Below are positions 37,751-48,919 of a stretch of 64,000 nucleotides of DNA, piece after piece. The number at the start of each line of letters is the position of its first letter. Position 1 is the first letter of the stretch. This DNA comes from an uncultured Chloroflexia bacterium (lineage in GTDB: Bacteria > Chloroflexota > Limnocylindria > Limnocylindrales > CSP1-4). The translations under genes were made by a program, and so were the position numbers. The stretch spans positions 1,536,001 through 1,600,000 of the forward strand of contig CAVPPB010000003.1 in assembly GCA_963707215.1 (NCBI GenBank). Direction: 5' to 3'. The notes below the pieces were generated by a model that was given only the letters and a program-made list of their open reading frames with translations, had not been told where the DNA came from and searched no databases.

Positions 37751-38208
37751 GGCTCGGGCTCCGGGCCACCCCTCGAGCCCACCCGGTCCGCGTCCCCGCC
37801 ACTGCGCCCGCCCGCGACGAGGAGCAGTAGCGACGTCTCGGCAACATCCACGGCCGCGATGACCGCGGCCACGACGAGCGGCAGCGGGTGTCCGAGGAGC
37901 CAGCCGATGCCAGCGACCACCGCCGCGAGGGCCAGGAAGGCGAGCCGGATCCCCCGCAGCATCACGATCGCGTCGACCTCGGCGAGTGGCCCGACGTCGG
38001 CCCCGGCGGCCCGGAAACGGTCGATCGAGGCGCGGAGGAGGGCGACGGACAGCACGAGCATGGCACCGACGAGGCCGGCCCGGACGAGGGCCGGTGGCGT
38101 GACGATGGCCTCGAGCAGGTCGGACCGACCCAGCAGCGCTGCGGCGCCGATGCCGGCCAGCCCGAGGACGAGGAGAACGACGGTCCCGATCCTGCCGCGG
38201 GTGCCCAC
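37747..38208 (-). CDS. hypothetical membrane protein
   Basis: About 4 hydrophobic helices; last gene of the moeZ-cysO-cysM-mec operon. Confidence 0.65.
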   Translation of the reverse strand: MGTRGRIGTVVLLVLGLAGIGAAALLGRSDLLEAIVTPPALVRAGLVGAMLVLSVALLRASIDRFRAAGADVGPLAEVDAIVMLRGIRLAFLALAAVVAGIGWLLGHPLPLVVAAVIAAVDVAETSLLLLVAGGRSGGDADRVGSRGGPEPEP

Positions 38209-38216
38209 CCGGCCGG

Positions 38217-38675
38217 TCAGGCGCCGACCCGCAGGTCGACCTCGTGGATGGTCCCGTCGACGATCCGCCAGGCGCGGATCGACGGCCGGCCCGTGGCAGC
38301 GTCCGCCTCGTCCTCGCTGAGCGACACCAGGACGTACAGGGCGTCGGGATAGAAGGCCAGGCCCACGTCGGTCGGCGAGGGACGGGCGGGCGATCGCACG
38401 TGGGAGTGGACGATGGCCCAGAAGACCTCGTCGGCATCCTCGGTCTCGAGGGTCAGGCGGAGGAGGTCGGCCGGGTCGATCTCGTAGCGGTAGGGCGAGG
38501 CGGCCTTGTTGCGCGCCGGTTCCCAGCGGAGCGGTCGACCACCCTCGGCGGCGGCGCGGTCACCGACGATGAGACCGCACATCTCGTTCGGGTACTCGGC
38601 GCGGGCGTGAGCGACGAGCGCGTCGGCGAGCACCGGAGGCAGCTCGACCGAGGAAGGGCCGGGGTGGCCGGTCAC
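38217..38675 (-). CDS. mec: Mec-like JAB/M67 metallopeptidase (CysO-cysteine peptidase)
   Basis: HARAEYPNEMCG, HSHVRSPARPSPTD (JAMM motif); GTGA overlap with the cysM stop. Confidence 0.88.
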   Translation of the reverse strand: MTGHPGPSSVELPPVLADALVAHARAEYPNEMCGLIVGDRAAAEGGRPLRWEPARNKAASPYRYEIDPADLLRLTLETEDADEVFWAIVHSHVRSPARPSPTDVGLAFYPDALYVLVSLSEDEADAATGRPSIRAWRIVDGTIHEVDLRVGA

Positions 38676-39736
38676 CACCAGTTGACTCCGCCCTCCAGGT
38701 CCTCCTCCATCTCGTCGAGGTCGCGGCTGAAGGTGCCGGCCGACAGGTACTTCCAGCCGCCGTCCGGGAGGAGGGCGACGATCGTCCCTCGCTCCATGGT
38801 CTTCGCCACCCGGGCCGCTGCGACCAGGACCGCTCCGCACGACGGCCCGGCGAAGATGCCCTCCTTGAAGACGAGGTCACGCAGCGCAGCGATCGCATCG
38901 CGGTTGCTGACCAGGAACTTGCCATCGAGGAGCGTCTCGTCGTAGATCTCCGGGACGAAGCCCTCGTCGAGCGAGCGGAGACCCTGGACGTTCTCACCGG
39001 GGAGCGGTTCGGCGGCGTAGACCTTGACCCGCGGCTTGCGCTCGCGCAGGTACCGTGCCACGCCCATCAGGGTCCCACCGGTCCCGAGCCCGGCCACGAA
39101 GGCATCGATCTCCGGGCAATCCGCCAGGATCTCGGGGCCGGTCGTCTCGTAGTGGGCCAGGGGGTTGGCCGGGTTGCCGTACTGGTACGGCATGACGAAG
39201 CGGGGATCCTTGGCGACCAGGTGCTTGGCCAGCGCGATGGCGCCATTGGAGCCAAGGCGCCCCGGGGAGTCGATGATCTCCGCCCCGTACAGGGCGGCCA
39301 TCTGGCGGCGCTCGGCGGTCACGTTGTCGGGCATCACCAGGGCGACCCGGTAGCCCTTCCGGCGACCGATCATCGCCAGGGCGATGCCGGTGTTGCCCGA
39401 CGTGGGCTCGAGGATGATCGACTCGTCGGTCAGCAGGCCCCGGCGCTCCAGGTCCTCGACGAGGTACTTCGCCGCCCGATCCTTCACCGACCCGGTCGGG
39501 TTGTACATCTCGAGCTTGGCGTAGATCCGCACCTCCGGCGTCGGGCTCATCCTCGGGATGGCCACCAGGGGCGTATGCCCGACGGCGTCGAGGATGGACT
39601 CGTGCCGGCCGCCGTGGCGGGGCAGGTCCTCGTGACCGTGGAGGTGAGGGAAGGCCGGATCGTGCCCGTGACCCGGCGCGGGAGCGACGTCCCCGGCCGG
39701 GGACGTCCGCGAGGCCCGGGGTGTCGCCACGGTCAT
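38672..39736 (-). CDS. cysM: PLP-dependent cysteine synthase (CysO-dependent CysM-like)
   Basis: GHTPLV, KLE..NPTGSVKDR, EPTSGNTGIAL, YQYGNPAN, GLGTGGT, DGGWKYLS; lies next to cysO and mec. Confidence 0.9.
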   Translation of the reverse strand: MTVATPRASRTSPAGDVAPAPGHGHDPAFPHLHGHEDLPRHGGRHESILDAVGHTPLVAIPRMSPTPEVRIYAKLEMYNPTGSVKDRAAKYLVEDLERRGLLTDESIILEPTSGNTGIALAMIGRRKGYRVALVMPDNVTAERRQMAALYGAEIIDSPGRLGSNGAIALAKHLVAKDPRFVMPYQYGNPANPLAHYETTGPEILADCPEIDAFVAGLGTGGTLMGVARYLRERKPRVKVYAAEPLPGENVQGLRSLDEGFVPEIYDETLLDGKFLVSNRDAIAALRDLVFKEGIFAGPSCGAVLVAAARVAKTMERGTIVALLPDGGWKYLSAGTFSRDLDEMEEDLEGGVNWW

Positions 39737-40005
39737 CCGCCGGCCATGGCGGGCAGGATGATCACCGTGTCGGTCGGACCGACCGGCGTGGCCCGCTCCT
39801 GGAGGAAGCGGACGTCCTGCCCATCCACGTAGACATTGACGAAGCGGTTCAGCTCCCCGTCGGGCGTCAGGAGCTGGCCCTCCAGCGTCGGATAGCGGGC
39901 GATCAGGGCGGCGATGACCTCGCCGACCGTCGTCGCCTCGACCTCGACCTGTTTGTCGCCGCCGGCCGAGGCCCGCAGGACCGGCGGGATCCTCACCGTG
40001 GTCAT
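39733..40005 (-). CDS. cysO: ubiquitin-like sulfur carrier (CysO/MoaD/ThiS family)
   Basis: TVRIPPVLR..GG..RFVNVYV..DVRF..ILPAMAGG (C-terminal GG). Confidence 0.88.
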   Translation of the reverse strand: MTTVRIPPVLRASAGGDKQVEVEATTVGEVIAALIARYPTLEGQLLTPDGELNRFVNVYVDGQDVRFLQERATPVGPTDTVIILPAMAGG

Positions 40006-41279
40006 GCCCGGGACTCCGGGTCGGAGGCCACGGGCTCCGGGTCGTACGCGAGGCCCGCCGCCGCCCCGAAGCCGCCGCCGAGGACGAACGTCTCGGTCGC
40101 GCCGGTGGCAGCGGTCGCGACGGTCGCCGTCTCCAGCGGGCGGCCGGCCTTCCGTGCCTCGACCGCCGCGTCGGAGCAGGTCGGGCAGGCTGGGTCCCGC
40201 CTGAGCTTCAGCTCGGTGAACGACGCGTCGAGCGCGTCGAAGAGGAGCAGTCGCCCGGCCAGGGAGTCGCCGATGCCGAGGATGAGCTTGAGCGCCTCGT
40301 TCGCCTGGAGCATGCCCATGATCCCGGGCACGACGCCCAGGACGCCTGCCACGGAGCAGCCCGGGGCGAGCTCGGGCGGCGGCGGCGTCGGGTAGAGGCA
40401 GCGGTAGCACGGACCCTCGAACGGCTTGAAGACCGTCAGCTGGCCCTCGAACCGGAAGACCGAGGCATGGACCACCGGGATCCCGGCGGCGACCGCGGCG
40501 TCGTTGAGCAGGTAGCGGGTCTCGAAGGTGTCGGTTCCGTCGAGGATGACGTCGTAGCCGGCGATGATCCGCTCGACGTTGTCGGCGACCAGCATCTCCT
40601 CGTGACCGACCACGGTCACCTCGGGGTTGATGGCGTTGATCGTCTGCCGCGCCGACTCGACCTTCTGGGTGCCCACGCGATCCGTCGTGTGGAGGATCTG
40701 GCGCTGGAGGTTGGAGACGTCGACGACGTCGAAGTCGACGATGCCGACCGTGCCGACCCCGGCCGCGGCCAGGTACAGGGCCGCCGGCGACCCGAGCCCC
40801 CCGGCACCGACGAGCAGGACCTTGGCGTCGAGCAGCCTGCCCTGGCCCTCGAGACCCACCTCGGGGATGAGCAGGTGGCGGCTGTAACGCCGCTTCTGGG
40901 CGTCGGTCAGGATCCGCGGCACGTCCCAGTCGAGGCCCTGGGCCTTCCATGACTGGAAGCCGCCGGCCATCGAGGCGACGTTCGTGTAGCCGAGCTGCTG
41001 GAGCGTCTGGCCGGCGAAGAGCGAGCGGATCCCACCGGCGCAGTAGATGACGACGGGACGGTCGCGGTCGGGGATGGCGGCCTCGATGTCCTGCTCGAGG
41101 TAGCTCTTGGAGACGTGGAGAGCACCGGGCGCGTGTCCGGCCTCCCACTCGATCTCCTCGCGGACGTCGAGCAGGACGGTCCGCGGATCGGCGGCCCGGG
41201 CGGCATCGGCCTCGAGCGCGCTGACCTCGCGGACCTGCTCGCGGGCCTCGCGAAGGAGATCGGCGTACGACTTGGGCAT
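40002..41279 (-). CDS. moeB: MoeZ/MoeB-type adenylyltransferase with N-terminal rhodanese domain
   Basis: Rhodanese (LLDVRE..W..GHAPGA, YCAGGIRS); RYSRHLLIPEVG, VGAGGLGSP, SNLQRQ, CYRC, CPTC. Confidence 0.92.
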   Translation of the reverse strand: MPKSYADLLREAREQVREVSALEADAARAADPRTVLLDVREEIEWEAGHAPGALHVSKSYLEQDIEAAIPDRDRPVVIYCAGGIRSLFAGQTLQQLGYTNVASMAGGFQSWKAQGLDWDVPRILTDAQKRRYSRHLLIPEVGLEGQGRLLDAKVLLVGAGGLGSPAALYLAAAGVGTVGIVDFDVVDVSNLQRQILHTTDRVGTQKVESARQTINAINPEVTVVGHEEMLVADNVERIIAGYDVILDGTDTFETRYLLNDAAVAAGIPVVHASVFRFEGQLTVFKPFEGPCYRCLYPTPPPPELAPGCSVAGVLGVVPGIMGMLQANEALKLILGIGDSLAGRLLLFDALDASFTELKLRRDPACPTCSDAAVEARKAGRPLETATVATAATGATETFVLGGGFGAAAGLAYDPEPVASDPESRA

Positions 41280-41431
41280 CTGGTTGGTGGCTCCGATGGG
41301 GCGACGGGCTGCCGCCGGAGCGGCAGGGCGGTGGTGATCGACGCGTCCGTGGCGTGTCCGCTAGGAGTTCGGGCGGGGTGGGGCCACGGTTTCCCGCTGC
41401 CGGTCGCCGGGGCGGCGGGGGCTCCGCCGGC

Positions 41432-41482
41432 TCAGCGATCCGGCCGCCGACACCTGCAGCGGCCCAGGCGGTCCATCGTCAT
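41432..41482 (-). CDS. putative cysteine-containing leader peptide MTMDRLGRCRCRRPDR
   Basis: ATG overlaps the sufU stop (ATGA); CxC codons; ends 152 nt before moeZ; GRCxC motif shared with 63226..63309. Confidence 0.6.
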   Translation of the reverse strand: MTMDRLGRCRCRRPDR

Positions 41483-41916
41483 GCCCCGCGCTCGGCAGGG
41501 TGGGCATCCGGGGCCACGCCGGCGGCAGCTTCGTCCTGGGTCGGCTGGATGCCTGCCTCGACGAGGGCCTTCTTGAGGGTGTCGTAACTGAGCATCGCGC
41601 ACTTGAGCCGGGCCGGGCTGATCTCGATCCCCAGCAGGTCGAGGAGATCGTCGGCCCGGAAGGCGGCCACGTCGGCGACCGGCTTGCCCTTGATCTCGTC
41701 GGTCAGAAGGGAGGCGCTGGCCTGGCTGATGGCACAGCCGCGCCCGGTGAAGCCGACCTGGTCGACGACCCCGTCGGTGACGTGGATCTGGAGGGTGATC
41801 CGGTCACCGCAGAGCGGGTTGTTGCCCTCGATGCTCGCCGACGGCTCCTCCAGCACCCCGAAGTTGTGGGGCCGCCGGTAGTGCTCCAGGATGTAGTCGC
41901 GGTAGAGGTCGTCCAC
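41479..41916 (-). CDS. sufU: SUF system NifU-family Fe-S assembly protein
   Basis: DDLYRDYILEHY..P.NFG, NPLCGD, GRGCAISQASASL, RLKCAML. Confidence 0.93.
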   Translation of the reverse strand: MDDLYRDYILEHYRRPHNFGVLEEPSASIEGNNPLCGDRITLQIHVTDGVVDQVGFTGRGCAISQASASLLTDEIKGKPVADVAAFRADDLLDLLGIEISPARLKCAMLSYDTLKKALVEAGIQPTQDEAAAGVAPDAHPAERGA

Positions 41917-41954
41917 GGTTCCCTGTGCTGTCGATCCGGCCGCTGTGGCCAGGG

Positions 41955-41981
41955 TAATCCCGACCGAATGCGTCGGGATTA
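41955..41981. promoter_or_regulatory. Rrf2/IscR-type palindromic operator upstream of sufU
   Basis: TAATCCCGAC-cgaatgc-GTCGGGATTA, a perfect 10-bp inverted repeat immediately downstream of a TAGCAT -10 box on the minus strand. Confidence 0.75.
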
Positions 41982-44900
41982 GGATGCTAGTCCCGGGGGC
42001 GGGGTCGCGTCAACGGCAGAGGACCCGACCGGTGCCGCACGTCTCGGATCCTCCAGCGCGGCCGCAGGTCCGGCCACAGGCGGCCCGGCCATCGCCATGT
42101 CGAGGCGATCGAGCCATGGCCGGGCCTCGACCCGCTCGAAGACAGCGTGCGCCTCCTCGGCGATCGCCCGGACGGCCGGATCACCGGCGCCGACGAGTGT
42201 GACGAGCGTCGTCGACTCCAGCGCCGCTTCGAAGTCCTCGCCTCGCTCGAGCATCCGACGGATAGCATCGCGATAGGCGGCGACGGCCTCCTGCCCGCGC
42301 CCCTCGAGCGCGGCGACCCCGCCGTTCGCGGCGGCCCGATAGAGCTGCAGGTCCGTGCTGCTCCCCGGGAGCTGGTCGAAGCGAGCCGCCACCCGGCGGG
42401 CACGGTCGATATCGCCCGCCCAGAGCGCCGCCCGGCCGGCGACGCGCAGGCAGACGTGGGCGAACGCTGAGAACAGATCGACAGCGCCGAAGGCCTCGTC
42501 GAAGGCCTTGTCGAGATCACCGGCCTCGATCAGCCGGAGGGCTCGAAGGATGAGGAGGACCTGTGCATCACCCGGGTCGGTGGCGTCCTGGAGCAGCGCC
42601 TCGAGCCGGTCCATGGACTCGCCGACCGGGTCGCCTCGATGGATGCGCAGGAGGGTGACGTAGGTCAGGATCCGCTGCTCGTCACTGGGGTCGCTGATCG
42701 CCGAGAGTGCTTCCTCGCCGGCAGCGATCGCGCCATCCCAGTCGTCGCCGGCCGCGAACGACGCGACCATGACGTTCGATACGAGCCAGTTGGCCATCAT
42801 CCGGTGGCCGACCCTGCGAGCGAGGGCGAGAGCGTCGATCCCGACCTGCTGCGACCGCCGCGGGTCATCGCCGCTCACGATCGAGCCGAGATTGGCCAGG
42901 GCGCGGAGCTCGGCCCCGACGAATCCTCCTTCCCGGGCGGCCCGGACCGCCGCCTCCAGCAGCGCGGCGGCTTCCCGCCGACGCCCGAGATATCCCAGGG
43001 CCGAGCCCTTGTTGTTGAACGTCTCGGCCACGACCAGCTCGAGATCGAGCCGCTCCGCGATGGCGAGCGCCCGGTCGGCGACCTCGATGGCTCGAGCCGA
43101 CTCGTCCGCCCGCATCAGCGCCCGCGACAAATTCGAGAGCACCTCCGCGCGGACCACCGGGTCGGCGTCCTCGGTCAGGTCCCCGAGGGTCGCTTCGAGC
43201 ATGACCCTCGCCTCGGCGATCCGCGACGCGTCGAGCAGGATCGCGCCATGCAGCGCCCGGGCCCGGGCGGCATCCATCTGATTGCCGGCGGCTTCGTAGG
43301 TCGCGGCCGCACCCTCGGCGAAGGCCATGGCCTCGGCGTAGCTCGAGCCGGCATCAGCGGAACGGGCGGCCCGGAGCATGAGCTTGGCCCGCTCAAGCCC
43401 TTCCGGGGTCACCTCGAGCGCCTGCTGGAGATGGGCGACGGCCTGCTGGTGGGCGCCCAGCGTGGCCGCTCGCTCGGCGGCTGCCCGGAGGGCGATCCGG
43501 GCCTGGCCTGCGACGGCATCGGCCTCGGGTCCGGGACTCGAGGCCCGGTGCGCGTCGAGATAGTGCGAGGCCAGCGCCCCGGCGAACTCCTCGTCGCCGA
43601 GCGTCTCGTACCAACGGGCCACGGCCAGGTGTCGGTCGCGGCGGTCGCGCCTGGCGAGGGTCCCGTACGCCACCTCGCGGATGAGCGATTGGACGAAGGC
43701 GTACTGGCCGCGCTCGGGCGAGCGCGGATCGGCCTCCAGCGAGAGCAGCTCGCGGCGGACGAGGGTGGCCAGCCGCGGCTCGAGATCGGCGACGTCGTCG
43801 CCGGTCGTGGAGGCCAGGCCCTCGAGCGTGAAGGTCTGCCCGAGCACCGACGCCGCCTGGACGAGCGCTCGGTCGGCTGCCTCCAGCGCATCGAGCCGGG
43901 AGGCGATGAGCGATCGGAGGGTGTCCGGGATCGCCAGGTTCGCCAGGTCGCCGACCGGCCGGTATGCCCCGTCGGTCATGGCCAGGCGTCCGTCGGCGAC
44001 GAGCGAGCGGACCGTCTCGACCGCGTACAGGGGGATCCCGTCGGCACGGTCGAGGATGGCGTCGGCGGCCGAGTCCGGGAGGCCTGGGACGAAGCCGTCG
44101 AGGAGCTCGTGCATCGCCTCATGCGAGAGCGGCTCCAGAGCCAGCGTCGTCAGGTTGCGCGCCGCCGAGCCCCAGCCGGCCCGACGTTCGAGCAGCTCCG
44201 GGCGAGCGAGCGTCACGACCAGGATCGGCGCGTTCCGCGACCAGGTCAGCAAGTGCTCGATGAAGTCGAGGAGTCCGGTGTCGGCCCACTGGAGGTCCTC
44301 GAACAGGAGGATCGTCGTGCCCTGGTCGGCGATCCGCTCGAAGAAGATGCGCCAGGCGGCGAACAGGACGTCGCGACCACCGGCCGGCGCCGGCTCCAGG
44401 CCCAGGAGCGTCAACAGGGCCGGCTCGACCCAGCGGCGGTCCTCGTCGGTCTGGACGTGATCGGCGACCGTCGCCGCGATCCGCTCTCGGGTCGTCGCCT
44501 CGTCGTCGGTCTCGGCCAGGCCCGCCCGGCGGCGGACCATCTCGCCCAGGGCCCAGAAGCTGATCCCCTCGCCGTATGACGGGGAGCGGCCGCGGTGCCA
44601 CCAGAGCGTCTCCGACACCCCGTCGGCGTACTTCTCGAACTCCCAGGCCAGCCGGCTCTTGCCGATGCCGCCGGGGCCGGTGATCGAGACGAGCCGGGCC
44701 TTGCGATCGCGGCCGGTGGCCGTGAGCTGGTCCTTGAGGAGCCGGAGCTCCTCATCACGACCGACGAAGGGCGGCTCCGGGAGGTCCGAGCGGCCGCGGC
44801 CGCCGCGCTCGGCGACGACCCGGAGCGCCCGCCAGGCCGGCACCGGCGCGGCCTTGCCCTTGAGGAGCTGCTCGCCGGCCTCCTCGAAGGCGATGGCCGA

Positions 44901-45575
44901 GCTCGCCGCCCGCTGGGTCGTCTCGCCGACCAGGACCGTGCCCGGCGGTGCGACAGACTGGAGACGGGCGGCCGTGTTGACGAGATCCCCGGCGACGAGG
45001 CCCTGGTTCGTCGCCCCGATCGTCACCGCGGCCTCCCCGGTCAGGACGCCGCAGCGGGCCTGGATCGTGGGGCCGAGGGCGCGGACGGCATCGGCAAGCT
45101 CGAGCGCGGCCCGGACGGCCCGCTCGGCATCATCCTCCTGGGCGACCGGGGCACCCCAGACTGCCATGACCGCGTCGCCGATGAACTTCTCGACCGTCCC
45201 GCCGTAGCGCTCGATGGTCTCGCGGCCGAGGTCGAAGTAGCGGGTCAGGAGCTCGCGGACCTCCTCGGGGTCCTTCTCCTCGGCAAACGGGGTGAACCCG
45301 ACCAGGTCGGCGAAGAGGACGCTGACGAGACGGCGCTCGGCGACGGGCGCGGTCCCGGAGGTCCGCCCGGTGCCCGCTCCGCCGGCCGTTCCCGCGCCGC
45401 CGGCCGTCGCCGGTGCGTCGGCACCCGGGAGCAGCGTGGCGCACTCGCCACAGAACTTCTCGCCGGGCTGGTTGGCGGCCCCGCAGGTCGGGCAGGTGAC
45501 CGCGAGCGGCGCGGCGCACTCGGAGCAGAACTTCCGCCCCGCTCGGTTCGCCATGCCGCAGTTGCCACAGATCAT
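41979..45575 (-). CDS. STAND-type class III nucleotide cyclase (double zinc ribbon + cyclase + AAA ATPase + TPR), paralog of 23739..27302
   Basis: CGNCG..FCSEC..CPTCG..FCGEC; ERRLVSVLFADLVGFT, EKFIGDAVMA, GDLVNTAARLQ; GPGGIGKS; LLFEDLQWAD. Confidence 0.92.
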   Translation of the reverse strand: MICGNCGMANRAGRKFCSECAAPLAVTCPTCGAANQPGEKFCGECATLLPGADAPATAGGAGTAGGAGTGRTSGTAPVAERRLVSVLFADLVGFTPFAEEKDPEEVRELLTRYFDLGRETIERYGGTVEKFIGDAVMAVWGAPVAQEDDAERAVRAALELADAVRALGPTIQARCGVLTGEAAVTIGATNQGLVAGDLVNTAARLQSVAPPGTVLVGETTQRAASSAIAFEEAGEQLLKGKAAPVPAWRALRVVAERGGRGRSDLPEPPFVGRDEELRLLKDQLTATGRDRKARLVSITGPGGIGKSRLAWEFEKYADGVSETLWWHRGRSPSYGEGISFWALGEMVRRRAGLAETDDEATTRERIAATVADHVQTDEDRRWVEPALLTLLGLEPAPAGGRDVLFAAWRIFFERIADQGTTILLFEDLQWADTGLLDFIEHLLTWSRNAPILVVTLARPELLERRAGWGSAARNLTTLALEPLSHEAMHELLDGFVPGLPDSAADAILDRADGIPLYAVETVRSLVADGRLAMTDGAYRPVGDLANLAIPDTLRSLIASRLDALEAADRALVQAASVLGQTFTLEGLASTTGDDVADLEPRLATLVRRELLSLEADPRSPERGQYAFVQSLIREVAYGTLARRDRRDRHLAVARWYETLGDEEFAGALASHYLDAHRASSPGPEADAVAGQARIALRAAAERAATLGAHQQAVAHLQQALEVTPEGLERAKLMLRAARSADAGSSYAEAMAFAEGAAATYEAAGNQMDAARARALHGAILLDASRIAEARVMLEATLGDLTEDADPVVRAEVLSNLSRALMRADESARAIEVADRALAIAERLDLELVVAETFNNKGSALGYLGRRREAAALLEAAVRAAREGGFVGAELRALANLGSIVSGDDPRRSQQVGIDALALARRVGHRMMANWLVSNVMVASFAAGDDWDGAIAAGEEALSAISDPSDEQRILTYVTLLRIHRGDPVGESMDRLEALLQDATDPGDAQVLLILRALRLIEAGDLDKAFDEAFGAVDLFSAFAHVCLRVAGRAALWAGDIDRARRVAARFDQLPGSSTDLQLYRAAANGGVAALEGRGQEAVAAYRDAIRRMLERGEDFEAALESTTLVTLVGAGDPAVRAIAEEAHAVFERVEARPWLDRLDMAMAGPPVAGPAAALEDPRRAAPVGSSAVDATPPPGLAS

Positions 45576-45789
45576 CTGGCCCCTCCCGTGGAGTGCGAAG
45601 GGTAGCGGCTGAGGGCGGGCCGGGCCAGCCCGGGTGATCCGGCCACCCGGCCGCGTGGTCCGGCGAACCGCTCGACGGGCAGAGGGCAGGGCGGCGGGCA
45701 GCTCCTTGGCGGGGTTGCCCGTCTACGCATGCCGCCGGGGCGGTCACGGTGGCGTCCCGCGCTGACGTCCAAGGCGCTCAGCGCGACAT

Positions 45790-45955
45790 CTGTCGGGTAC
45801 CAGTCACGCTGGTGCTATCGCGGATCGGTGACGGTCCCCCGGTGAAAGCACCGCGGTGCCAGCGTGGGCGTCCCGCATGGCACCAGCTCCACTGGTGCCG
45901 CACAAGGATCGCCGCCCGGGGACGGCATAGCACCAGCCCCGCTGGTACGGCACAG
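45790..45955. repeat. three copies of palindrome GYACCAG-N5-CTGGTRC with conserved flanks
   Basis: Cores at 45797-45815, 45880-45898 and 45930-45948; copy 1 is inverted relative to copies 2 and 3. Confidence 0.75.
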
Positions 45956-46085
45956 GAGCCACCGCCTCGAGCGACCGCCACGGACGGGTGACCGTCAAGG
46001 ACGGGTGACCCCCAGTGTTGCGCAGACGGGCAACGGCGATGGACGTGCACCTCGGGCAGCGGCCGCTCGCCGACCATCCCCGACC

Positions 46086-47384
46086 CTATCCCCCGAAGAG
46101 GCGCTGGACCTCCTGCAGCCCGGCGACGAGGGCGTCGACGTCCTCGCGGGTCGAGTAGACGTTGAACGAGGCGCGGACCGTCGCGGAGAGGTCCAGTCGC
46201 TCGTGGAGGGGCATCGTGCAGTGGTGTCCCGCCCGGACGCACACCCCGGAGCGGTCCAGGACCTGGGCCACGTCGTGCGGATGGACGCCGGGGACGTTGA
46301 ACGGGATGACCCCGCTCCGGAGGTCGGGGTCCAGCGGGCCGTACAGCTCGATCCCGGGCACGTCGCGCGCCAGCACGTCGAGCGCATAGGCGACGAGCTC
46401 TCGCTCGTGCTCGCGGACCCTGTCCATGCCGACCGCCATCAGGTACTCCGCGGCCGCCCCCAGCCCGATCGCCGCTGCGATATCCGGCGTCCCGGCCTCG
46501 AACTTCCAGGGCACGTCGTGCCACTCGGACCGCCGGAGGTGGACCTCGCGGATCATCTCACCGCCACCCATGAATGGCGGCATCGTCTCGAGCAGTTCCT
46601 TCCGTGCCCAGAGGGCACCGGAGCCGGTCGGCCCGAGCATCTTGTGGCCGCTGAACACGTAGAAGTCGGCCCCCAGGGCCTGGACGTCGACCGGCAGGTG
46701 GGGAACGGCCTGGGCGCCGTCAACGAGGACGAGCGCCCCGGCGGCGTGGGCCCGATCGACGATCTCGCGAACCGGGTTGATCGTCCCCAGCGTGTTGCTG
46801 ACCTGGACGAAGGCCACGAGCTTGGGCTTGAGCCGCAGCAGGACGTCGAGGACGTCGAGCCGCAGGATCCCGTCGTCGGTCATCGGGATGAACTCGAGAT
46901 CGCCGTCCTGCTCCTGGACCAGGAGCTGCCAGGGCACCAGGTTGGCGTGGTGCTCCATCTCGGTCAGGACGATCGCGTCGCCGCGCCCGATGTTCCGACG
47001 ACCCCAGCTATGGGCGACCAGGTTGACCGCCTCGGTCGCGTTGCGGACCCAGACGATCTCGTGGGGATCCGGGGCGTTGACGAACCGGGCGACGGACGCT
47101 CGGGCCGACTCGTAGGCCGCGGTCGCCCGCTCGCCGATCGCGTAGATGCCGCGGTGGACGTTCGCGTTGTACTCGCGATAGTAGGTGTCCATCGCCTCGA
47201 TGACCGCCAGCGGCTTCTGGCTGGTCGCGGCCGAGTCGAGGTACACGAGCGGCTTCCCGTGGGCCGTCGTCCCGAGGATCGGGAAATCGGCCCGCAGGGC
47301 ATGGGGATCGAGTCGGGCTCCGGGCCCGGCGGGCTGCGCCGGTGTCGGGGTCGGGGAGTTCGCGGCTCGGGCCTCGACGGTCAT
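46086..47384 (-). CDS. sufS: SufS family cysteine desulfurase
   Basis: LVYLDSAATSQKP, ANVHRG, EMEHHANLVPWQ, DGAQAVPH, FSGHKM, FEAGTP, VRAGHHC. Confidence 0.95.
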   Translation of the reverse strand: MTVEARAANSPTPTPAQPAGPGARLDPHALRADFPILGTTAHGKPLVYLDSAATSQKPLAVIEAMDTYYREYNANVHRGIYAIGERATAAYESARASVARFVNAPDPHEIVWVRNATEAVNLVAHSWGRRNIGRGDAIVLTEMEHHANLVPWQLLVQEQDGDLEFIPMTDDGILRLDVLDVLLRLKPKLVAFVQVSNTLGTINPVREIVDRAHAAGALVLVDGAQAVPHLPVDVQALGADFYVFSGHKMLGPTGSGALWARKELLETMPPFMGGGEMIREVHLRRSEWHDVPWKFEAGTPDIAAAIGLGAAAEYLMAVGMDRVREHERELVAYALDVLARDVPGIELYGPLDPDLRSGVIPFNVPGVHPHDVAQVLDRSGVCVRAGHHCTMPLHERLDLSATVRASFNVYSTREDVDALVAGLQEVQRLFGG

Positions 47385-47417
47385 GGGACGGCGTAGCCTA
47401 GCGTGACCGGGCGGCCC

Positions 47418-48290
47418 TCAGCGGGCCACCTCGACCGGCTCCGGTGCGTGAGCGCTCAGCGCCTCGTCCGAGACGTCGGCCGCCAGCCCGTGCTCGTGGA
47501 GGACCGGGCCGTAGCCCTCGTCCTCGAGCCGCAGCGCGAGATCCCGTCCGCCGCTGGTGACGATCCGGCCCTGAGCCAGGACGTGGACCACGTCCGGCTT
47601 GATGTGGTTCAGCAGGCGCTGGTAGTGGGTGATGAGCAGGACGCCCATGTCCGGGTTGAGCATCGCGTTGACGCCCTCGGCGACGATCCGCAGGGCGTCG
47701 ATGTCGAGCCCCGAGTCGGTCTCGTCGAGGATCGCCATCTCGGGCTCGAGGACGGCCATCTGGAGCATCTCCAGGCGCTTCTTCTCGCCGCCCGAGAAGC
47801 CCTCGTTGACATACCGGGCGGCGAAGGCCTCGTCCATCTTGAGGAGGGCGAACTTGTCCCGGACCTTGCGCCGGAACTCGCCCATCGTGATCCCGCCGCG
47901 GGTCGGGTCGGTCGGGTCCACGTCGGGGTCCTTGTCGACGCCCTGGAGCTTGGCGTTGAGCGCCGAGCGCAGGAAGCTGGCGACGGAGAGGCCCGGGATC
48001 GCCGTCGGGTACTGGAAGGCCAGGAAGAGCCCCATCCGGGCCCGCTTGTCGGCCGAGAGGGCCAGGATGTCGACGCCCTTCCAGAGGACCTCGCCGCCCT
48101 GGACCTGGTAGGCCGGGTGGCCCATGAGGGCATACGCCAGCGTCGTCTTGCCCGAGCCGTTGGGGCCCATGATCGCGTGGACCTCGCCCTTGCGGACGGT
48201 CAGGTCGATGCCCTGGAGGATCGCCCGCTCGGGCTGGCCGGCGGGAGCGACCCGGAGGCCGCGGATGACGAGGTGCTGGTCGTTGCTCAC
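47418..48290 (-). CDS. sufC: Fe-S cluster assembly ATPase
   Basis: GEVHAIMGPNGSGKTT, GLFLAFQYP, NEGFSGGEKKR, ILDETDSGLDIDAL, ITHYQRLL. Confidence 0.95.
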   Translation of the reverse strand: MSNDQHLVIRGLRVAPAGQPERAILQGIDLTVRKGEVHAIMGPNGSGKTTLAYALMGHPAYQVQGGEVLWKGVDILALSADKRARMGLFLAFQYPTAIPGLSVASFLRSALNAKLQGVDKDPDVDPTDPTRGGITMGEFRRKVRDKFALLKMDEAFAARYVNEGFSGGEKKRLEMLQMAVLEPEMAILDETDSGLDIDALRIVAEGVNAMLNPDMGVLLITHYQRLLNHIKPDVVHVLAQGRIVTSGGRDLALRLEDEGYGPVLHEHGLAADVSDEALSAHAPEPVEVAR

Positions 48291-48319: not shown

Positions 48320-48853
48320 TCAGGCGGTGACCGCCTCACGGGGAGTGGTCGGATGCTGGCCGTTGTCGGACGTCCGGTTGGCGAGGCCCTCAAGGGCGAT
48401 CGCCCGGGACGGGACGAGGTCGGCCAGGGTGATGGAATCGAGCGATTCGGCGATCGCGTCACGGATCCTGATCCATAGCAGGTTGACCGTGCAGCGCGAC
48501 GTCCGGTCGCAGCCGGGCAGGTGGTCCGGCTCCTCGGAGGCGCAGACCATCGGGGCGATGGGGCCCTCCAGGGCCCGGAGGACATCAGCCATCGGGATGT
48601 CGCCCGGTGGTCGCGAAAGCTGGTAGCCGCCGCGCGCGCCCCTCGTGCTTGCGACCAGACCAGCGTCGCGGAGGGCGATGGCCAGCTGCTCGAGGTACGG
48701 GCGTGGCAGGTCCTCGTCGCCGGCGATCTCGGTCAGGGATGCCGGACCGGATCCGTAGCGACGGCCGAGCTGGACCATGAGCCGCACGCCGTACTCGCCC
48801 TTCGTGCTGAAGGCGAGTGCTCCGGTGCCGTGGTACGTCTGGCGCTGGCTCAA
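48320..48853 (-). CDS. Rrf2 family transcriptional regulator (IscR-like, 3 Cys); start uncertain (TTG 48853 or 48883)
   Basis: FSTKGEYG, YLEQL, GLVASTRGARGGYQL, LEG..C-x10-C-x5-C..W..L..ITLADL. Confidence 0.9.
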   Translation of the reverse strand: MSQRQTYHGTGALAFSTKGEYGVRLMVQLGRRYGSGPASLTEIAGDEDLPRPYLEQLAIALRDAGLVASTRGARGGYQLSRPPGDIPMADVLRALEGPIAPMVCASEEPDHLPGCDRTSRCTVNLLWIRIRDAIAESLDSITLADLVPSRAIALEGLANRTSDNGQHPTTPREAVTA

Positions 48854-48894
48854 GGACCGGGATCTCCAGGACAGGGTGACCAAGACGCTCGGTC

Positions 48895-48919
48895 AATCCC
48901 GACGGATCTTGTCGGGATT
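48895..48919. promoter_or_regulatory. Rrf2/IscR-type palindromic operator upstream of rrf2-sufC-sufS (autoregulation)
   Basis: AATCCCGAC-ggatctt-GTCGGGATT, a perfect 9-bp inverted repeat adjacent to a TAGACT -10 box on the minus strand. Confidence 0.8.

Follow-up and report, generated by a model that had tools for sequence, protein, structure and literature searches.

The window analysed here is a stretch of 64,000 nucleotides (nt) from an uncultured Chloroflexia bacterium (CAVPPB010000003.1, positions 1,536,001-1,600,000). The subject of this study is a short open reading frame (sORF) of 16 codons, which lies between sufU, encoding an iron-sulfur (Fe-S) scaffold protein, and the genes moeZ-cysO-cysM-mec, and which is called the leader below, after the function that we propose for it. 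All the genes from sufU to mec are on the minus strand, and the features of the locus, in the coordinates of the window, are as follows.

41479..41916, minus strand: sufU (NifU_N Fe-S scaffold, 145 amino acids (aa), GTG start; PF01592, 90.6 bits), with its TGA stop at 41481-41479
41432..41482, minus strand: candidate leader sORF, 16 codons, MTMDRLGRCRCRRPDR; its ATG (41482-41480) overlaps the sufU stop (ATGA) and its TGA stop is at 41434-41432
41450..41458, minus strand: putative regulatory codons TGC-AGG-TGT (Cys-Arg-Cys), with TGC at 41458-41456 and TGT at 41452-41450
41426..41444, minus strand: hairpin 1, GCCGG (41444-41440) / CCGGC (41430-41426), a stem of 5 base pairs (bp) and a 9-nt loop that holds the leader stop
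41280..41431, minus strand: untranslated spacer of 152 nt from the sORF stop to the moeZ ATG (41279), C-rich and G-poor, resembling a Rho utilization (rut) site
41302..41330, minus strand: hairpin 2, with flanks CCGCCCUG and CAGCCCGUCG around stem-loop-stem, about 10 nt 5' of the moeZ GGAG
41291..41294, minus strand: GGAG, the presumed Shine-Dalgarno (SD) sequence of moeZ, 11 nt 5' of the ATG; G52, G53 and A54 are nearly invariant in the alignment
40002..41279, minus strand: moeZ (Rhodanese + ThiF; Pfam matches of 281.7 bits for ThiF and 74 bits for Rhodanese)
39733..40005, minus strand: cysO, a sulfur carrier of the ThiS type with about 90 aa (Pfam ThiS, 46.6 bits, at the C-terminus of ORF 39733-41148; start inferred from translation)
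38672..39736, minus strand: cysM (pyridoxal phosphate-dependent, cysteine synthase type; PALP 246.8 bits)
38217..38840 as listed, minus strand: mec (JAB/JAMM peptidase; Prok-JAB 75.9 bits at residues 71-192 of the listed ORF, the true start lying further in)

Most of this arrangement had been described in the first-pass annotation, which was made from the letters alone. Reading of the bases confirmed the 16-codon ORF whose ATG overlaps the sufU stop, as well as the positions of the Cys codons and of the GCCGG/CCGGC hairpin; the C-rich spacer, put at roughly 150 nt, measures 152 nt with 48.7% C, and Pfam matches support the identities of sufU and of the genes after it. The product of sufU is the single NifU_N match in the whole genome, and the gene adjoins moeZ, apart from the sufB operon, which sits on another contig (contig C1 of G000). 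By ORF coordinates the ATG of cysO overlaps the stop of moeZ (ATGA, 40002-40005), the same style of coupling as that between sufU and the leader.

Alone, a 16-codon ORF with two Cys codons would prove nothing. The first-pass annotation had named conservation of the ORF, its frame and its Cys codons in relatives as the test of its proposal, and had supposed a Chloroflexota origin for the DNA. A search for sufU in 41 related genomes gave a match in 39, and a second search returned 80 loci from uncultured organisms known solely as assembled genomes; these carry the names Chloroflexota or Candidatus Limnocylindrales, in agreement with that origin. Among 110 related sufU loci (Limnocylindria), the leader motif, defined as TG[CT]-NNN-TG[CT]-N6-CCN-GNN at most 140 nt after the sufU stop, was found by pattern in 80, and the addition of one locus (L077) brings the count to 81; it is this conservation that places the ORF beyond chance. 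Of the 22 family genera in which sufU was matched in the first genome set, 17 have the leader. A degenerate pattern, which misses the window's own leader variant, was also run over 401 Chloroflexota genomes (a sample including the unpublished G209 and G306, on which no claim rests); it matched in 15 of 23 family genomes, 13 of these matches being judged real-looking (..CCGGCCTGA..GCCGG), and in none of four genomes of the sister family, and its matches in other families are without the form in which the stop lies in the hairpin loop and look like chance. Within the genome of the window the leader core is unique, with one exact match, and one-mismatch matches numbered three as against four for a reversed control pattern; the search for further genomic copies returned neither another leader core nor another true hairpin 2.

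Several individual loci depart from the common form. In L077 the sufU frame continues into the leader (...RRMNRIERRCRCRQPA*) through a one-base frame difference, which is either a true fusion or a one-base assembly error. Two others look like decayed leaders: L020 retains the second Cys codon (TGT) alone, at the usual spacing to the hairpin (MTACLRPAG), and L039 retains the first Cys codon, with CGT replacing TGT and the stop gone. In the sister family (L024-L029, genomes of 1.0-1.4 Mb), about 812 nt separate sufU from the moeZ match and presumably contain another gene, and a start codon overlaps the sufU stop; neither the leader motif nor hairpin 2 is found there.

The frame of the leader is maintained with great regularity. 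The first Cys codon (Cys1) lies at 14 different distances from the sufU stop, between 8 and 83 nt and all equal to 2 modulo 3, and 79 of the 80 motifs are in frame. The start codon is provided by ATGA in 45 of the 80 loci, GTGA in 18, TTGA in one, TGATG in 13 and an ATG two bases past the stop in two, with a relay in the remaining one; 77 of the 80 starts overlap or abut the sufU stop. The relay (L096) consists of an 8-codon mini-ORF that overlaps the sufU stop (ATGA) and whose own stop overlaps the TTG start (TTGA) of the Cys-x-Cys ORF. An ATGA overlap needs a last sufU codon that ends in A, and such codons are rare in this genome of 72% G + C (GCA makes up 5.8% of Ala codons). Outside the sister family, 24 loci lack the motif; most of their sufU genes end in ..C TGA, and RTGA occurs in only four, namely the decayed leaders L020 and L039, L030, where it is the start of moeZ itself, and L019.

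The peptide varies from 10 to 36 residues (median 15) and its N-terminal part is unconserved. In the 80 motifs, Cys1 is TGC in 79 and the second Cys codon (Cys2) is TGT in all, while the codon between them may be AGG, ACG, ATG, GGG, GAG, GCG, TCG, CTC or GCC, and the spacing from Cys2 to the stop is five codons in 71. A minority of leaders read Cys-Cys-x-Cys (e.g., L008, L009, L010, L035, L036 and L065); most, including that of the window, read Cys-x-Cys. In the long ORFs of the genome, TGT accounts for 17.5% of Cys codons and AGG for 4.1% of Arg codons. The genome has one tRNA-Cys(GCA), and TGT is therefore read by wobble. This pattern of invariance agrees with the two Cys codons being selected as codons, rather than with selection on a peptide fold or a contiguous RNA motif. 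On comparison among the loci, the leader ORF shows the marks of selection as a translated frame, with the Cys pair as its invariant core.

The gene order downstream was compared across the loci in which sufU is next to moeZ and at least 1700 nt of sequence is available past the moeZ start. The order moeZ-cysO-cysM follows the leader in 53 of 54 such loci, or in 54 of 55 with L077, which had first been scored as leaderless. All eight truly leaderless loci (L048, L052, L054, L058, L060, L070, L076 and L078) have the order sufU-moeZ-JAB, and cysO or cysM is present at the locus in none of them; the gap between sufU and moeZ is 2-79 nt in leaderless loci. Given these counts (54 of 55 as against 0 of 8), the leader and its spacer are present exactly where cysteine-making genes follow. 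The sufU-moeZ pair thus also belongs to a second type of operon. In L048 a phosphoketolase gene (XFP_N) comes next, and in L048 and L076 sufU stands directly 3' of the end of another gene.

The RNA around the leader is conserved in structure as well. Hairpin 1 begins within 9 nt after Cys2 (5-6 nt), its stem reaches at least 6 bp in 68 of 69 unique relatives, and the mean stem is 6.54 bp as against 2.85 bp with a shuffled 3' sequence; in 64 of 69 the leader stop lies within the loop or touches it. The stem has some compensated variants (GCUGGC/GCCAGC, CGGAUC/GAUCCG and GGCCUG/CAGGCC), and the non-coding 3' arm is as conserved as the 5' arm, which encodes the conserved Pro-Ala. For hairpin 2, 85.5% of the cells in the alignment of 72 sequences (A1) are paired as against 76.6 +/- 1.0 in shuffled alignments, and 58 cells carry double-sided changes as against 26.3 +/- 3.6, values that 0 of 500 shuffles reached in either case; controls in which the hairpin was slid along the alignment were 23-58% paired. 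The covarying pair types are UA 52 / CG 11 and GC 30 / CG 23, the two flanks are near-invariant, and the structure may include a CC-CC internal loop. By the same comparison, both hairpins are selected RNA structures. Hairpin 2 is retained directly after the sufU stop in the leaderless short-gap loci L013, L052 and L054 and is thus an independent element of the moeZ 5' region, which may serve in RBS control or as a protein or processing site. A scan of positions 38000-48000 against Rfam, at E up to 1, returned no matches.

RNAalifold gave no consensus on the full alignment of 72 sequences; the count on the named structure given above and a subset of 24 sequences were used instead. The consensus fold of this subset contains a 3-bp helix between the CCG of the invariant CCCGUCG and the CGG of cGGAG before moeZ, and otherwise consists of separate local hairpins. 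Many single-sequence folds show a third, middle hairpin of variable sequence between hairpins 1 and 2 (CGCGGA..UCCGCG; GAGGACGG..CCGUCCUC), as in L068, L072, L085 and L100, and in L053, L056, L083 and L101. The spacer is not wholly unstructured, with hairpin 2 and often the middle hairpin inside it. In composition it is unusual: in the window it has 48.7% C and 29.6% G, a C/G ratio of 1.64, which is equalled or exceeded by 0.39% of the 150-nt windows of the genome. The median ratio of 311 co-directional intergenic gaps of this genome is 1.06, with a 99th percentile of 1.59, and about 1% reach 1.64. Over 69 loci, the spacer, at 48.7% C and 26.1% G, has a median C/G ratio of 1.85, and the ratio is above 1.5 in 96%.

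Two further features, upstream of sufU, concern the transcript that carries the leader.

41984..42013, minus strand: sigma-70-like promoter match, TTGACG-18-TAGCAT, upstream of sufU, the sole match in 20 kb (0.3 +/- 0.5 expected)
41956..41980, no strand assigned: perfect palindrome, AATCCCGAC-N7-GTCGGGATT, between the promoter match and the sufU start, a probable Rrf2-family operator by prediction

The strict promoter pattern is found upstream of sufU in 5 of 109 loci and is weak as a family feature; in the gap between sufU and moeZ it is found in none of 78 loci, and the gap of the window contains no promoter-like site either. As the gap lacks such a site, sufU, the leader and moeZ-cysO-cysM-mec appear to form one transcript. 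The palindrome has three copies in the genome, with 0, 0 and 1 mismatch (41956-41980; 48895-48919; and L116 2231-2255, that is, G000:C1:525530-525554), and these precede, respectively, sufU, an Rrf2-family gene 7 kb away (48320-48883, minus strand; PF02082, 128.6 bits) and sufB (SUFBD_core 295.6 bits), the last copy lying about 40 nt upstream of the gene. With at most three mismatches, the palindrome precedes sufU in 49 of the 78 loci with a leader and in 2 of 30 others. The palindromes look like a small autoregulated Fe-S regulon of the IscR/SufR type that would include the sufU-leader-moeZ transcript, which suggests that the transcript starts under an IscR-like Fe-S regulon. Such control of the promoter by Fe-S status, if true, would help to explain why the operon holds a second gate that is specific to cysteine.

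Taken as a whole, we regard the sORF as probably a Cys-tRNA-sensing leader peptide that sits inside the operon and switches the downstream genes on at cysteine shortage. Its responsiveness to cysteine, the direction in which it acts and the involvement of Rho are our inferences. A ribosome leaving sufU would restart on the leader through the ATGA overlap. With plentiful Cys-tRNA, it would pass TGC-x-TGT, open hairpin 1 and terminate at the stop in the loop, and its release there would leave about 100-150 nt of naked C-rich RNA and keep the expression of moeZ-cysO-cysM-mec low, most likely through the loading of Rho onto the spacer. A ribosome stalled with the wobble-read TGT in its A site would have its front edge on hairpin 1, at the 5' arm that lies 5-6 nt downstream; the stall would alter the fate of the downstream RNA, and the cysteine-synthesis genes would be expressed.

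For the effector we favour Rho-dependent attenuation after the release of the ribosome at the stop, relieved by a stall at the Cys codons, because the spacer is C-rich and G-poor, Rho is present (PF07497, 97.4 bits; open frame, 465 aa) and neither a U-tract terminator nor an SD-masking switch was found. Between 41150 and 42100 there are no terminator-like sites consisting of a hairpin and a U-tract, and neither hairpin is followed by a run of T; over 20 kb, U-tract terminators are not enriched either (3 found, 2.2 +/- 1.5 expected). No masking duplex over the ribosome-binding site (RBS) of moeZ is predicted beyond the 3-bp CCG:CGG helix, a result that folding predictions leave short of an exclusion. 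The first-pass annotation had proposed that a stall at the Cys-x-Cys codons under cysteine limitation allows read-through into the cysteine operon. Its coupling of a Cys leader to that operon gains from the conservation and from the co-occurrence with cysO-cysM and may well hold; for the read-through, neither a canonical terminator nor consistent unmasking of the RBS was found, and a dependence on Rho is suggested by the composition of the spacer and the presence of the factor.

Two other effector steps were tried. For unmasking of the moeZ RBS by the stalled ribosome, no conserved upstream anti-SD sequence is seen in the folds, the SD pairing mostly with downstream coding bases. A frameshift relay under starvation was rejected: from Cys1 as far as the moeZ ATG, 59 of 69 loci have an open +1 frame (55.7 +/- 3.1 expected) and 45 of 69 an open +2 frame (50.6 +/- 2.8 expected), and the frame of moeZ relative to the leader is random (25/25/19).

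Several observations weigh against the proposed mechanism. The fixed TGC at Cys1 and TGT at Cys2 reveal a constraint at the nucleotide level that sensing by any Cys codon does not explain, and the Cys codons number only two and are not adjacent. When a ribosome footprint was forced at Cys2 in 68 sequences, the unpaired probability from the SD to the AUG moved only from 0.527 to 0.558 (23 sequences up, 10 down and 35 unchanged), and the forced stall opened hairpin 2 inconsistently, although the indexing of the hairpin 2 pairs may be imperfect there. The 3' arm of hairpin 1, once freed, has no conserved partner, no antiterminator-type pairing overlaps the leader, and the duplex between leader and RBS is weaker than chance (-19.1, as against -22.2 for shuffled leaders); the lack of a consensus from RNAalifold on the full alignment belongs here as well. 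A stalled ribosome covers about 15 nt, and how a stall 13 nt before the stop would exclude Rho from a spacer of 100-150 nt is unexplained. The loci are kin, so the locus counts overstate their independence. Public sequencing runs, searched as contigs, were uninformative, with a best DNA share of 0.16 and RNA shares of 0.04; at 80% likeness four runs gave mostly the ThiF and NifU parts of other organisms and left the spacer nearly uncovered. In one RNA run, two contigs join 41279 to 41440, with 26 letters on the shorter side, from which no conclusion is drawn.

The most serious rival keeps the same sensor and changes the effector: the leader would control the initiation of moeZ translation as in Ms5788A of mycobacteria, with hairpin 2, CCCGUCG and GGAG masking the RBS, a stall relieving the mask, and any effect of Rho being secondary polarity. 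We give this a minority chance, though one to be taken seriously. In its favour, the 24-sequence consensus pairs CCG with CGG beside hairpin 2, the SD is mostly paired in single-sequence ensembles (unpaired probability 0.28), and the one Cys leader that has been dissected experimentally, according to the part of that report drawn on here, works by masking the RBS (10.1101/834739). However, the helix in question is just 3 bp long, the simulated stall neither frees the SD nor opens hairpin 2, and about 100-150 nt separate the leader from the RBS, a distance that no conserved long-range pairing bridges; moreover, the hairpin 2 module of the leaderless L013, L052 and L054 works without a leader. 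A quite different kind of sensor would act in a two-signal gate, in which the Rrf2 (IscR-like) operator sets the transcription of sufU by Fe-S status and the leader, ...R-C-x-C-x-x-P-A-stop, is an arrest peptide of the TnaC kind, with cysteines that respond in the ribosome tunnel to redox state or to a thiol or sulfur metabolite, a stall at or near the stop denying access to Rho. An arrest peptide would explain the fixed order of TGC and then TGT, the spacing of five codons to the stop (71 of 80) and the stop-in-loop geometry, none of which the counting of Cys codons would require; we nevertheless judge this gate improbable.

The remaining rivals give the sORF no regulatory role as a reading frame. 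It might encode a functional micro-protein, basic and with a Cys-x-Cys motif, which would bind metal or carry sulfur together with SufU and MoeZ: Cys-x-Cys is a classic thiol and metal motif, the ATGA coupling makes the peptide stoichiometric with SufU, and a large subgroup shares I-E-R-R before the Cys pair with a few synonymous changes (ATT, GAA, CGT). Against it, the peptide ranges from 10 to 36 aa, its N-terminal part is unconserved, and R, T, M, G, E, A, S or L may stand between the cysteines; the 5' arm of hairpin 1 accounts for its 'P-A' end, the non-coding 3' arm being conserved to the same degree, the choice of Cys codons is fixed at the nucleotide level, and the peptide is missing exactly where cysO-cysM is missing, though SufU and MoeZ remain. 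We hold such a function to be as doubtful as the arrest peptide. Slightly less credible still is an RNA-only element or protein-binding site, made up of the hairpins and their flanks, in which the reading frame is incidental. It would account for the conservation of the core CTGCAGGTGT, both hairpins and the flanks of hairpin 2 as nucleotides, and TGT and AGG are rare codons in the genome; but the frame is held across 14 linker lengths, a start codon at the sufU stop accompanies the motif and is not seen in its absence, and the codon between the Cys pair varies with a freedom that a sequence motif would not allow. The conserved core also lacks an RNA partner, and the Rfam scan found no known element.

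The leader that we favour, a Cys-tRNA sensor inside the operon, has its closest published counterparts in Actinobacteria. In Mycobacterium smegmatis, sORFs with Cys codons (Ms5788A and others) are cysteine-responsive translational attenuators of cys operons on leaderless mRNAs (Canestrari et al., 10.1101/834739). According to the portion of that report considered here, these cases were selected for at least two consecutive Cys codons, in the dissected one a duplex masks the RBS of the next gene, and positions other than Cys may be constrained as nucleotides. Like them, the Limnocylindria leader is unannotated and has its Cys codons near its end, directly upstream of cysteine genes on the same transcript, with the ribosome as the proposed sensor of charged tRNA-Cys. 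Unlike those described in that portion, it is internal and coupled to sufU rather than leaderless, it reads Cys-x-Cys, its distance to the next start is about 100-150 nt, it belongs to Chloroflexota, and no masking duplex is predicted for it. The element is a distinct variant in another phylum that, judging from its sequence, would work like the mycobacterial family.

An earlier prediction of Cys leader peptides in Actinobacteria, in the part that bears on this question, described them without terminators and proposed Rho-dependent attenuation of the tna type (2005, PMC1262725). The likeness extends to Cys codons near the stop, the lack of a terminator hairpin and a pyrimidine-rich spacer; the actinobacterial ones, however, are described there as runs of Cys at the 5' ends of operons, and their Rho-site motifs as not conserved (PMC1262725). 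In the Limnocylindria leader, by comparison, the C-rich composition is conserved across the family, two hairpins are covarying or invariant, and the leader is coupled to an upstream gene.

In tnaC-rut of the Escherichia coli tryptophanase operon, TnaC senses free tryptophan through the nascent peptide, stalls at its stop and induces a catabolic operon. The arrangement proposed here resembles it in the leader peptide, the long untranslated spacer for Rho and the position of a ribosome near the stop that would decide access; unlike in tnaC, the invariant part is a pair of Cys codons four codons before the stop, ahead of a biosynthetic operon. With trpL and hisL, and with the upstream ORF of Mycobacterium tuberculosis ilvB1 as presented in the part of PMC13236596 drawn on, the leader shares codons for the end product, a stop beside a hairpin and a biosynthetic operon downstream. 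The trpL/hisL type, in contrast, has a U-tract terminator and a competing antiterminator and sits at the transcript start; neither RNA element was found here, and this leader stands behind a coding gene. A literature search, which did not extend to Tables S1-S3 of 10.1101/834739, found no Cys leader described in Chloroflexota or Limnocylindria or coupled to sufU.

All published cysteine leader peptides come from Actinobacteria, and an element of this kind in Chloroflexota would extend ribosome-based cysteine sensing to that phylum. Its layout would also be different, with a sensor placed inside an operon and fed by ribosomes from the upstream gene; in this way, sufU, which an apparent Rrf2/Fe-S operator governs, could share one transcript with genes that answer to cysteine as a second signal. 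The 81 natural variants amount to a mutational data set on the minimal regulatory codons and the geometry of leader peptides, a series that spans linkers of 8-83 nt, nine middle codons, decayed forms and leaderless sister loci without cysO-cysM. In addition, they flag an unannotated and probably translated sORF that gene callers miss throughout the family.

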